Source of the DNA: an uncultured Gammaproteobacteria bacterium
GTDB lineage: Bacteria > Pseudomonadota > Gammaproteobacteria > Pseudomonadales > UBA5518
Assembly: GCA_903938575.1 (NCBI GenBank)
Contig: CAJADV010000085.1
Location: 9,491-73,490 of the forward strand
Length of the DNA: 64,000 bases
Direction of reading: 5' to 3'
The notes under the pieces are model-generated. The model made no database searches. It saw only the letters and a list, made by a program, of their open reading frames with translations, and had not been told where the DNA came from. Positions within the stretch are counted from its first letter, which is position 1. Every line of letters starts with the position of its first letter. Shown piece after piece: positions 5,855 to 10,357 of the stretch. The position numbers were made by a program, and so were the translations under genes.

Positions 5855-8800
5855 TCAGGCCCGCGGAAACTGCACCAGCCGGGCCGTAGGTGAACGTCGC
5901 AGGAACAGCCGCTCGATGTCCGCCGCCGGTACGGCCTTGCTGAGCAGATAGCCCTGCAAGTAATGGCAATGCATGTCTTTCAGGAACTGGCGTTGCATGG
6001 TGGTCTCCACGCCCTCGGCAATCACCTCGACTTCCAGCGCCTGCGCCAGCGCGATGATCGTTCGCACGATGTCTGCATCGATACGGTTGCTCATCACGTC
6101 GGAGATGAATGCCCGGTCGATCTTGATGTAGTCGAGCGGGAAGCGCTTCAGGTAGCTCAATGAGGAGTAACCGGTACCGAAGTCATCGATAGCGAGCCGT
6201 GTGCCCATCGCTTTCAGATCGCGCAGCATCCCGATCATCTCGTCGGGCCGCTCCATGATCGCGCTTTCGGTTATTTCGAACTCGATGTACTCGGGCGCGA
6301 TGCCGGCATCGGCGATCACCTCGCGGAAGTCCTCGACCAGTCCCGGGTTGGACAGCTGCCGCGCCGAGAGATTGATCGCGACCCGGGGCGTCTCGAAGCC
6401 GCGCGCCGTCCAGTCCGCCACCTGCGTGCAGACCGTGCACAGCACCCAGCGGCCGATCTCGCTGATCAGCCCGGTGCGCTCGGCGAGCTCGATGAACTCC
6501 GCTGGCGGCACCAGTCCGCGGGTCGGGTGCTGCCAGCGGATCAAGGCCTCGTAGCCCGATACGATGCCCGTGCGCAGGTCCTCCTGCGGCTGGTAGTAGA
6601 CCACCAGTTCCTCGCGGTCGATGGCGTTGCGCAGTTCGTTCTCGGTCTCGAGTCGCGCGAGGCTCTCGGATTCCAGCCGTGCTTCGTAGAACTCCCAGGA
6701 TTTCTTCCCGGTCTTGGCGTGGTACATCGCCATGTCGGCCGAGCGCAGCAGCGTGCCCGCGTCCCTGCCGTGCTCGGGATACACGGCTATGCCCATCGAG
6801 CTGCCGAGCAGCATCTCGCGACCGAGCAGCACGAAGGGACGGTTCACGTGATCGTGGATTTTCTCGGCGATGTTGCGGATCATTTCGTAGGAGCGCACGT
6901 TGTCCAGCACGATGCAGAACTCGTCGCCCCCGAAGCGGCCCACGAAGTCACCCTTGCGCACGCTGTTGACGAGGCGCTCGGCAACGTACTTCAACAACAG
7001 ATCGCCGGCCTCATGGCCCAGCGTGTCGTTCACCAGCTTGAAGTCGTCCAGGTCGAGGAACAGCAGGGCGAACTGTTTGTCGCTCCGCACGGCCTCGGCG
7101 AGAAGCGTCTCCATGTGCTCGTTGAACTTGGTGCGGTTCGGGCGCCCGGTGAGCGAATCGACATAGGCCAGTTGGTGCACGCGAGCCTCGGCGCTGCGTG
7201 CGGCGAGCAGGTGCTCGATGCGGCGTCGCAGCACCGAGTAGTTGATCGGCTTGGCGATGTAGTCGGTGGCGCCGGCGCTGAAGGCCTTGTCCACCGCGCC
7301 GTCGTCGTTCAGGCCCGTGACCAGCAGCAGCGGTATCCCGGCGCAGCCGGGAAGGGCGCGAATCAGTGCGCAGGCGGTGAATCCGTCCATTATCGGCATC
7401 ACGCCGTCCATCACCACCAGATCGGGCGCCGCCTGGCGGCAGATTTCCACGGCCTGCTGTCCATTGCTCGCCTCGGCTACCTCATAGCCCTCGCCCAACA
7501 GCGTCTCGCGCAGCGCAAAGCGCGATGAGCGGTCGTCATCGACCACCAGTATCCGCGACTGCCGCGCGTCCGCTGCCTTCAGTTCATCGCCGGGCGCCGG
7601 GCGGGAGGTGCTGCTGCCTTCCAGCACGTGCCGCACCAGATTGGCCTCGTAGACCAGCGCCGAAACGAGATTCTCGCAGGCCGAGCGCACGCCGCTGCGG
7701 GCTTCCTGCTCGAGTGCGAGCGCGCGCTGGGCGAGACGGTTTGCGCCAACGTTGCCGGCCGCGCCTTTCAGGGTGTGCGCCACGCGCGTGATCCCGGCCA
7801 TGTCGTGGATTTCGGCGGCGCCGCGGAGTTCGTCGATGTAACCGGGCAGATCCTCCAGAAACAGTCCTACCATCCGGTCCGCAGCAGGGCCGATCTGCTG
7901 GCGCAGATCGTCGAGGAATGCCTTGTCCACCACGGTGTTCGAGTTGCTGCGCGGGGCAAGCGGCGCCGTCGATGCGGGCGCTGCCTCCTCGGGAGTAAGC
8001 CAGCGCCCGAGCGCTTCGCGCAGGACACTGAGCTTGATCGGCTTGGACAGGTAATCGTTCATGCCGGCCGACTGGCACTGCTCCATCGCACTTTTCTGCA
8101 CGTTCGCGGTCATGGCCACCACGGGCACGGCCGAGAAGGCGGCGTTCATCTCGCGGATCCGGCGTGTCGCCTCGAAGCCGTCCATGCGCGGCATGTGGCA
8201 GTCCATCAGGATGAGGTCGAAACGCTGTTCGCGCAGGCGCTCGAGGCATTCGAGTCCGTCGCTCGCGAGTACCGCTTCGCAGCCGAGGCGCTCCAGCATG
8301 CCGATGGCCACCTCCTGGTTGGCGCGGTTGTCCTCGACCACGAGCACGCGGTTTCCCGTGAATGTCTCGCGTGAGGACGGCGCCGGGAAGCGGTTCACGG
8401 CGCGCGCGGCAGGCTGCTCGGCGAGCAGGCTCCGGATGCAGTCGTGCAGCATCCCGCGGCGCAGCGGCTTGGCCAGAACCTGCGCGATGCGGATTCCCGG
8501 CAGCCACACGCCGTCCGGGCGCGGCCGCACGCCGAGCCGGACCACGTGACGTGCCCCAGCGGCGAGCGCGGCGGCGATCTGCTGGGCCTCGTTGCCGATC
8601 ATGCCCTCGTCGATGATGGCGATGTCGAAGCGCTCCTGGCCGGCGGCGTGACCGAGCGCGGCCAGCGTCGACTCGAGCGTGCCGGTGGCGGTGAGGCGCA
8701 CGCGCTCGCCGAGCAGCATGCTCGCCGCCGAACGGCGTACCAGCGGGTTGTCGTCGCAGAGCAGCACCGAGGCTACTTGCGCCAGCGGCAAGCTCGAGCG

Positions 8801-10357: not shown

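Follow-up and report, generated by a model that had tools for sequence, protein, structure and literature searches.

A BarA/GacS-type sensor kinase fused to its own predicted c-di-GMP regulator, in a conserved operon with a TonB-dependent receptor and an orphan binding protein

In several known systems a sensor kinase is paired with a REC-GGDEF-EAL response regulator encoded by a second gene, as in Lpl0330/Lpl0329 of Legionella and PdeK/PdeR and RavS/RavR of Xanthomonas. The Pseudomonas putida pair consists of the hybrid kinase CfcA and the REC-GGDEF-EAL regulator CfcR, which is reported to act as a cyclase (PMC6849547). Unorthodox kinases of the BarA/GacS type, master switches between motile and virulent or biofilm lifestyles, end at an Hpt domain and signal to GacA/UvrY, driving Csr/Rsm small RNAs. 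The sensing module in BarA, GacS and VarA kinases is DUF2222 (PMC4822843), and the signal of the GacS/BarA periplasmic domain is still unknown after decades (PMC12148439). Here we describe a gene that brings both types of system together, located in a window of 64,000 nucleotides from an uncultured gammaproteobacterium (assembly GCA_903938575.1, contig CAJADV010000085.1, positions 9,491 to 73,490). The gene, at 5855..10357 of the window on the reverse strand, encodes a membrane-bound sensor protein of 1500 residues.

From its sequence, the architecture of this protein is best understood as that of an unorthodox kinase of the BarA/GacS type joined to its own response regulator. By this prediction a complete four-step phosphorelay and an output in cyclic di-GMP (c-di-GMP) are encoded as one polypeptide. 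The main interest of the locus lies outside the coordinates of the sensor gene, to which a sequence-only reading of the window had been confined, in a conserved module of importer, binding protein, sensor and enzymes. Our overall picture, to which we assign a probability of about 60%, is that a ligand imported by the TonB-dependent receptor would act through the binding protein on the periplasmic PDC domain of the sensor, and that a His-Asp-His-Asp relay would control c-di-GMP turnover. Our confidence is much higher for the anatomy of the relay than for the input route.

Anatomy and conservation of the sensor

The sensor is read from a single uninterrupted open reading frame (ORF) with an ATG start, 9 nt downstream of a GGAG, as supported by its translation, Pfam, NCBIfam and full-length homologues. 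Its domain order is TM (transmembrane helix) - PDC - TM - HAMP - HisKA - HATPase - pseudo-receiver - REC - Hpt - REC - GGDEF - EAL. All of the following features lie on the reverse strand. Hydropathy places the two membrane helices at residues ~12–36 (10250-10324) and about 180–205 (9743-9817), with a periplasmic loop of about 143 residues between them. HAMP (residues 200–250; 9608..9760; Pfam) is followed by the kinase core (8831..9511; Pfam), comprising HisKA (residues 283–346, phospho-accepting H293) and HATPase_c (residues 396–509), in which the N, G1 and G2 boxes are intact. A degenerate receiver, or pseudo-receiver (residues ~530–650; 8408..8770), precedes receiver 1 (residues 671–783; 8009..8347; Pfam E-value 7.8e-30), which contains ED675-676, D719, T749 and K772. 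The Hpt domain (residues 828–901; 7655..7876; 5e-17) carries H861, and receiver 2 (REC2; residues 936–1047; 7217..7552; 3.6e-27), the receiver of the fused response regulator, contains DD940-941, D984, T1013 and K1036. In the GGDEF domain (residues 1064–1218; 6704..7168; 5.8e-45) the GGDEF motif (1143–1147), the I-site RKGD (1134–1137) and the substrate and metal residues D1102, N1110, D1119 and K1215 are intact. The EAL domain (residues 1240–1474; 5936..6640; 3e-80) contains E1270, R1274, N1329, E1361, E1364, D1391, D1392, K1412, E1448, E1451 and Q1468, with DDFGTGYSS in loop 6. These Pfam E-values are far past chance level. The remaining signature motifs are SHELRTP (292–298), HTLKGAAGNVGA (861–872), EALIRW (1270–1275), DDFGTGYSSL (1391–1400) and EGVET (1448–1452).

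The sequence-only reading had described a single 1500-residue polypeptide with HK, REC, Hpt, REC, GGDEF and EAL domains at 5855..10357, and the ORF and Pfam agree with it. Its domain calls, including the degenerate receiver, were right, and the motifs that it quoted (the H-box, HTLKGAAGNVGA, GGDEF, EALIRW, DDFGTGYSSL and EGVET) are all present. It had allowed that domain searches might fail to find Hpt or the second REC; both are supported. The I-site and the EAL loop-6 residues, which it had singled out for checking, are intact, as are all the catalytic residues.

We searched 5.8 billion protein clusters with the 1500-residue sensor and counted residue conservation over 25 aligned family members (alignment A1). 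The relay residues H293, D719 and H861 are each present in all 25, and D984 in 24, consistent with the earlier proposal of a His-Asp-His-Asp relay in cis. The Lys of both receivers and the I-site RxxD are likewise found in 25/25, and the EAL catalytic and loop-6 residues in 24–25. The GGDEF motif is retained in 21 members; the four variants are GGDDF, SGDDF, SGDEF and SGDGF. In the window protein, judged by these residues, the cyclase and phosphodiesterase domains both look competent.

The search gave more than 110 clusters at 90% identity with 98–100% query coverage, a length of 1475–1535 residues, the same Pfam set and 38–99% identity to the window protein. The family occurs in Gamma- and Betaproteobacteria. 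Named sources are Nitrosococcus watsonii, N. oceani, Candidatus Nitrosoglobus, Exilibacterium, Maricurvus, Porticoccaceae and Cycloclasticus, and also Cellvibrionales, Immundisolibacter, Rhodocyclaceae, Burkholderiales and Noviherbaspirillum; the genomes of Nitrosococcus watsonii (CP002086) and Maricurvus (AP031498) are complete. The nearest named relative is a protein from a Pseudomonadales metagenome-assembled genome (MAG), at 66% identity. In a scan of contigs with the full-length alignment, the only true family members among the matches listed were those of Methylomonas methanica (L003) and a Burkholderiaceae MAG (L004), and the remaining matches listed were mostly unrelated GGDEF-EAL proteins.

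This distribution bears on two views of the architecture. That the 1500-residue ORF is a misassembly chimera, or a recent gene fusion without function, is suggested by its unusual length and by nothing else, and we consider the probability negligible. The identical protein is present on several independent contigs and metagenome assemblies, and its length and domain order are shared by over 100 relatives of full length, some as low as 38% identity and some in complete genomes; the ORF is therefore not an artefact of assembly or fusion. The description of the architecture as an extreme case of domain accretion was overstated. At least 110 clusters at 90% identity share it, as do 24 of the 34 complete sensors encoded beside orthologous binding proteins (see below), which points to a stable, vertically conserved architecture rather than an accreted one-off. 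Source annotations name the family merely "EAL domain-containing protein" or "diguanylate cyclase (GGDEF)-like protein". It had also been left open that this might prove a well-characterised family, and only these generic names turned up: in literature searches on the architecture, the gene cluster, PF04392, COG2984 and DUF2222 we found no description of the sensor family or the operon (subscription journals were outside the coverage).

The N-terminal 900 residues are a BarA/GacS-type unorthodox kinase, comprising PDC, HAMP, kinase core, pseudo-receiver, receiver and Hpt. Among NCBIfam models BarA fits best, residues 42–891 being colinear with model positions 35–891 of 920; the sensor scores 517 bits, below the cut-off of 890 for this equivalog model. 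Among solved structures the HAMP-H1 kinase fragment of GacS (7Z8N) matches residues 233–508 with an E-value of 3.8e-66.

The earlier reading could name no family for the periplasmic loop of ~145 residues, and here it can be replaced. The segment at residues ~38–180 (9818..10246) is a GacS/BarA-type sensor domain (sCache_4/DUF2222) with a PDC fold in its model. A profile built on the periplasmic segment of 20 family members (A2) gave a single significant match in the PDB, the GacS periplasmic domain 5O7J (E-value 7.5e-9). The AlphaFold2 model of the segment (pLDDT 87.5) shows a long N-terminal helix followed by a five-stranded sheet, and by Foldseek it comes closest to the extracellular PDC domains of WalK, CitA, CdgS9 (a LapD orthologue) and PctC. 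The Pfam family sCache_4 (PF09984, formerly DUF2222) is weak in the window protein (E-value 0.04) and is precomputed for many homologues, and DUF2222 is the module assigned to these kinases in the literature cited above. Against 1.84 billion representative proteins, the PDC profile matched 913 clusters at E-values of 1e-3 or lower and 122 at 1e-30 or lower, in proteins ranging from fragments to ~1540 residues.

The helix that joins HAMP to the H-box (residues ~251–282; 9512..9607) varies by whole heptads among the relatives in A1. The distance from FNTMM to SHELRTP is 36 residues in 21/25 relatives, 50 residues (+14, two heptads) in the window protein and its 87%-identical relative, and 78 residues (+42) in two relatives of 67–69% identity. 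The inserts are tandem copies of a 14-residue unit of the ARDQAIEQ type, so the coiled-coil register of this signalling helix is kept.

The pseudo-receiver gives a weak Pfam receiver match at residues ~531–589 (E-value 0.003 when scanned alone), and its family profile (A3) matches genuine receivers at 2e-16. D583, at the acceptor position, is invariant (25/25), the DD acidic pair is present in only 11/25 members, and the Thr/Ser position is not conserved. The window protein has DD535-536, D583 and K630 and lacks the conserved Thr/Ser; the Lys is usual in the family. GacS carries a pseudo-receiver (p-REC) at the equivalent position (PMC12148439). By analogy with Rec1 of ShkA, a Caulobacter hybrid kinase with a c-di-GMP-binding pseudo-receiver (PMC6969517), the domain might be phosphorylatable or might bind a small molecule. 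ShkA (6QRJ) aligns as one stretch over sensor residues 287–788, and in both proteins the pseudo-receiver lies between kinase core and receiver; in that of the sensor the acceptor Asp is retained, and the acidic pair is missing from roughly half of the family. Unlike the sensor, ShkA has neither a periplasmic sensor domain nor GGDEF-EAL. The DDR tether motif was not found in the linker between pseudo-receiver and REC of the window protein (AEQPAARAVNRFPAPSSRETFTG, residues 650–670), and we set aside ShkA-like c-di-GMP feedback through the pseudo-receiver.

The C-terminal 600 residues are a complete fused REC-GGDEF-EAL response regulator. The closest solved GGDEF-EAL structure is MorA (4RNH, E-value 2.7e-116), and REC2 and GGDEF align with PleD and with REC-GGDEF structures of the WspR type. 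High-scoring NCBIfam models for this half are the phosphodiesterases DibA, PRK10060 and DosP, all below their cut-offs. Because it is fused to a kinase and an Hpt domain in one membrane protein, this regulator stands outside the stand-alone response regulators.

The operon and its conservation

The sensor gene is the last of six tightly packed genes on the reverse strand, with two 4-nt ATGA overlaps and remaining gaps of 8, 14 and 29 nt. The first gene (15161..17008) encodes an acetolactate-synthase-like thiamine-diphosphate (TPP) enzyme of 615 residues with Pfam TPP_enzyme_N, M and C domains. NCBIfam models for acetolactate synthase and ScyA-related proteins fall below cut-off, and the best PDB matches are BbmA and CsmA, then AHAS. 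BbmA and CsmA are PDB depositor names for which we found no relevant paper, and they carry no functional claim here. A TonB-dependent outer-membrane receptor follows (12979..15153; 724 residues from MNKRF; Pfam Plug and TonB_dep_Rec_b-barrel), for which the specific NCBIfam models are all below cut-off. Cell-surface signalling of the FecA type was ruled out for this receptor; its plug begins ~50 residues past the start codon, too short a stretch for an N-terminal signalling domain. Next come two citryl-CoA-lyase-like proteins, both distant relatives of that enzyme. The first (12146..12964; 272 residues) matches the PDB entry 6HXP (E-value 7.5e-11). The second (11325..12149; 274 residues), which starts in an ATGA overlap with the upstream stop, matches 6HXP at 4e-6 and falls below the cut-offs of the NCBIfam citryl-CoA lyase models.

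The gene directly upstream of the sensor (10387..11328) begins in an ATGA overlap with the preceding stop, ends 29 nt before the sensor ATG, and encodes a periplasmic solute-binding protein of 313 residues with a Sec signal peptide (MTRLAIIALASALCLIPFRAVQA). Its Pfam and NCBIfam matches are weak: it scores 23.3 against PF04392 (ABC_sub_bind), for which the Pfam cut-off is 25.9, and most of its orthologues carry PF04392. The AlphaFold2 model (pLDDT 88) has a type-I periplasmic binding fold with two lobes. By Foldseek it is closest to the PF04392 structures CD0873 (6HNI), 3LKV and 3LFT, at 16–18% identity and solved with aromatic amino acids, and the binding protein of the XylFII-LytS complex with its kinase is also among the fold matches. 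No ABC permease or ATPase is conserved beside the binding protein in any annotated locus, and we therefore regard it as an orphan. Simple scans for sigma-70 promoters upstream of the TPP gene and for intrinsic terminators downstream of the sensor gave none, and are weakly informative at 65% G+C.

The same six genes, an orthologous sensor gene preceded by the other five, recur with unrelated flanks at six further sites: in a close relative of the window organism, Nitrosococcus watsonii, an uncultured gammaproteobacterium, Maricurvus nonylphenolicus, a Noviherbaspirillum-like betaproteobacterium, whose operon holds an additional short-chain dehydrogenase, and Immundisolibacter. The neighbours are true orthologues across these loci, with identities to the window proteins of 52–56% for the TPP enzyme, 43–52% for the receptor, 31–38% for the binding protein and 30–47% for the second lyase-like protein. 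Two Methylomonas genomes retain only receptor, binding protein and sensor. Gene order is shuffled between lineages (11325..15153 of the window compared with L002, L084, L085 and L089). The receptor gene stands before the two lyase-like genes in the window, in the contig of the 87%-identical relative and in L083, and after them in Nitrosococcus, Maricurvus, Immundisolibacter and the Noviherbaspirillum-like locus. Several metagenomic loci have their enzyme genes in divergent orientation to the binding-protein gene.

Public metagenome contigs were scanned with an alignment of the binding protein (A4), which gave 80 loci with a binding protein 37–99% identical to that of the window, and these were annotated with hidden Markov models derived from the loci already described. 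Since this set comprises the top matches to a single binding protein, and many of the contigs are short, the fractions that follow are indicative rather than population estimates. Of the 61 loci with enough downstream sequence, 55 have a PDC-domain gene on the same strand that starts within 600 bp downstream of the gene for the binding protein. Where at least 7 kb is available on both sides (13 loci), the TonB receptor is present in 13/13, the TPP enzyme in 8/13 and the lyase-like pair in 7/13, co-directional with or divergent from the binding-protein gene.

Thirty-four sensors in these loci could be read to their end. Twenty have the full architecture of the window sensor and four have it without the pseudo-receiver; six are PDC-kinase-REC, two are PDC-kinase, one is PDC-GGDEF-EAL without a kinase, and one has another architecture. 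In a Sulfuricella locus the order is binding protein, PAS kinase, TPP enzyme, both lyase-like genes and receptor, and the periplasmic domain of the PAS kinase belongs to the same PDC family (hhalign 99.9%). Because the linkage persists while cytoplasmic architectures vary, the conserved unit is sensor domain, binding protein and receptor, often with the enzymes, and the cytoplasmic output is exchangeable.

Two kinds of locus depart from this arrangement. In L119, L134 and L164 the binding-protein gene is followed by a TonB receptor gene, with the TPP and lyase-like genes divergently upstream, and no PDC sensor gene was found nearby; either its gene lies at another site or the module can function without a sensor. 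Locus L088 (contig JAAUYD010088552, 1..7690) encodes a 1726-residue relative with a CHASE8 sensor and a PAS domain before the same relay and GGDEF-EAL. Ahead of it lie a DUF4154 (YfiR-like) periplasmic protein and a 646-residue ORF, and none of the operon's genes, which suggests that in this kinase lineage each type of sensor domain has a periplasmic partner of its own.

Around the operon, a short-chain dehydrogenase gene (4983..5756, forward strand) is convergent to the sensor gene and 98 nt from its stop, as also in the contig of the 87%-identical relative. The dehydrogenase of the Noviherbaspirillum-like locus (L085, 3179..3928), 33% identical, lies within the operon, flanked by the TPP gene and the lyase-like genes. 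The dehydrogenase may count as a loosely attached seventh member of the module. Further downstream, on the reverse strand (903..4818), is an aromatic-compound catabolic cluster with a GntR/FCD regulator (4093..4818), a homotrimeric Rieske ring hydroxylase (2799..4022), a ferredoxin-NAD reductase (1770..2789) and an alpha/beta hydrolase (903..1739); it is not conserved beside the module in other genomes. Two forward-strand genes diverge from the operon start, a 253-residue ORF (17133..17894), whose counterpart by position in the contig of the 87%-identical relative has a faint EthD match, and an esterase/lipase-like alpha/beta hydrolase (17937..18866). They are common only to the closest relative's contig and hence probably outside the module.

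Proposed mechanism and alternatives

In the mechanism that we propose, a scarce extracellular compound would enter the periplasm through the co-transcribed TonB-dependent receptor and be captured there by the co-transcribed orphan PF04392 binding protein. The liganded binding protein would dock on the PDC domain or pass the ligand over to it. HAMP and the signalling helix would then switch autophosphorylation of H293, and the phosphoryl group would pass from H293 to D719, H861 and D984 within the dimer. Phosphorylation of REC2 would shift the activities of GGDEF cyclase and EAL phosphodiesterase relative to each other, and with them the c-di-GMP level of the cell. The likeliest role for the three cytoplasmic enzymes would be in making or converting either the sensed compound or one of its precursors.

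Several points weigh against this picture. We infer the contact between binding protein and sensor from gene linkage alone, and in 6/61 loci no PDC sensor adjoins the binding protein. The observed frequencies are biased to close relatives, because the 80 loci are best matches to the window's binding protein. The nearest solved binding proteins take aromatic amino acids, yet they share just 16–18% identity with ours, and a TonB-dependent receptor would be unusual for a small self-made signal. The enzymes are absent from 5/13 well-covered loci and are accessory on that account. At the output end, transfer from Hpt to REC2 within the molecule is an assumption, since Hpt could also serve another regulator, and the sequence gives no sign of whether phosphorylation favours synthesis or hydrolysis.

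Two alternatives are the most serious: that the sensor perceives its ligand directly, with no part for the binding protein, and that its output is phosphodiesterase activity only. If the PDC domain senses its signal directly, as is assumed for GacS, the binding protein, receptor and enzymes would be an uptake or metabolic unit co-regulated with the sensor or regulated by it. PDC/Cache domains usually bind small ligands directly, the fold matches of the periplasmic model include CitA and PctC, and the loci that lack the enzymes fit this view. GacS and BarA moreover operate without a dedicated binding protein (PMC12148439). We nonetheless consider direct sensing unlikely. In the annotated loci no inner-membrane permease or ATPase accompanies the binding protein, which therefore cannot complete an uptake route; its gene lies directly upstream of the PDC gene in 55/61 loci, even where the output has been replaced; and the relative with a CHASE8 sensor has a DUF4154 neighbour instead and no such binding protein.

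The sequence-only reading held that the dominant output is not predictable from sequence. This still stands, with the qualifier that EAL is kept more strictly than GGDEF across the family, which favours hydrolysis as the indispensable output and leaves the case of the window protein undecided. The protein might in effect be a phosphorylation-controlled phosphodiesterase in which GGDEF, like that of several GGDEF-EAL proteins, binds GTP or c-di-GMP for regulation in place of acting as a cyclase. We regard this as possible, though on balance it is not our expectation. The invariant or nearly invariant EAL catalytic and loop-6 residues would fit, as would a GGDEF motif altered in 4/25 members beside an I-site present in all, and the sub-cut-off NCBIfam matches, which are phosphodiesterases. 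Set against these, the GGDEF motif and its substrate and metal residues are intact in the window protein, and MorA, the closest solved relative, has been described as bifunctional. REC-GGDEF-EAL regulators such as CfcR are reported to act as cyclases (PMC6849547).

Finally, REC2 could be a phosphate sink or competitor while Hpt passes the signal to a separate regulator elsewhere, as with GacA/UvrY, leaving GGDEF-EAL constitutive or otherwise controlled. Residues 1–900 do form a complete BarA-like kinase ending with Hpt, and Hpt domains commonly serve diffusible partners. This arrangement is nevertheless improbable: none of the loci examined has a conserved response-regulator gene close to the sensor, and REC2 always lies between Hpt and GGDEF and keeps its phospho-acceptor residues in 24–25/25 members, the arrangement expected of a cognate receiver.

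A bolder version of the proposed mechanism is a self-contained make-and-sense circuit. The carboligase and the lyase-like pair would synthesise a secreted compound, which would be recaptured through the TonB receptor, read by the binding protein and PDC domain, and relayed to c-di-GMP. The compound could be an acyloin or alpha-hydroxy-keto acid signal, or a carboxylate metallophore. Such a circuit is speculative and rather doubtful; if true, it would constitute autoinducer or public-good sensing of a new class, and the first defined input route of a GacS/BarA-type sensor domain, with value as a model for the GacS signal.

In either form, the conserved context suggests an input route for a GacS-type sensor domain, made up of an importer, an orphan binding protein and candidate ligand enzymes. 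The protein would be a natural single-chain model of a four-step relay that sets the balance of cyclase and phosphodiesterase. The c-di-GMP output is easily measured, and cultured hosts exist (Nitrosococcus watsonii, Methylomonas species and Maricurvus nonylphenolicus), which makes ligand fishing, phosphotransfer and enzyme assays feasible.

Comparison with known systems

With BarA, GacS, VarS and LetS of the Gac/Csr-Rsm pathway the sensor shares the sCache_4/DUF2222 sensor family and the domain order from the first membrane helix to Hpt, and with BarA/GacS a near-identical residue numbering (H293, D719 and H861 in the window protein). Where those kinases stop, the window protein runs on, adding REC-GGDEF-EAL, so that its output would be c-di-GMP turnover in place of a GacA-type transcription factor. 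Its gene is linked to those for a TonB receptor, a binding protein and enzymes, whereas we know of no such linkage for canonical barA and gacS. It stands outside BarA/GacS proper because of its score below the curated cut-off and its different output.

The pairs of the CfcA/CfcR type are alike in that phosphorylation of a receiver controls a tandem GGDEF-EAL, with receiver, GGDEF and EAL all competent by sequence. They differ in having separate chains, where kinase, relay and regulator form one polypeptide in the window protein, and in their sensors, which are CHASE3/GAF or PAS rather than GacS-type.

For the input side, precedents are the binding-protein-dependent sensors LuxP-LuxQ, TorT-TorS, XylFII-LytS and NspS-MbaA, whose binding proteins are orphans. 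As in the window, the gene for a secreted orphan binding protein adjoins the sensor gene with no ABC permease, and in NspS-MbaA the binding protein controls a GGDEF-EAL protein, ending in c-di-GMP turnover. Their binding proteins belong to families other than PF04392 and their sensor domains to other families too. The unit described here further includes a TonB receptor and cytoplasmic enzymes, and its interaction between binding protein and sensor is suggested by linkage.

Bacteroides hybrid two-component systems, encoded beside SusC-type TonB receptors, also combine a kinase fused to a response regulator in one chain with genetic coupling to a TonB-dependent importer. They differ in their AraC DNA-binding output, the absence of an Hpt step, and another sensor fold and phylum. 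Taken together, the sensor works like a BarA/GacS kinase fused to a regulator of the CfcR or Lpl0329 type, and by analogy it is probably fed like LuxPQ, TorTS or NspS-MbaA.

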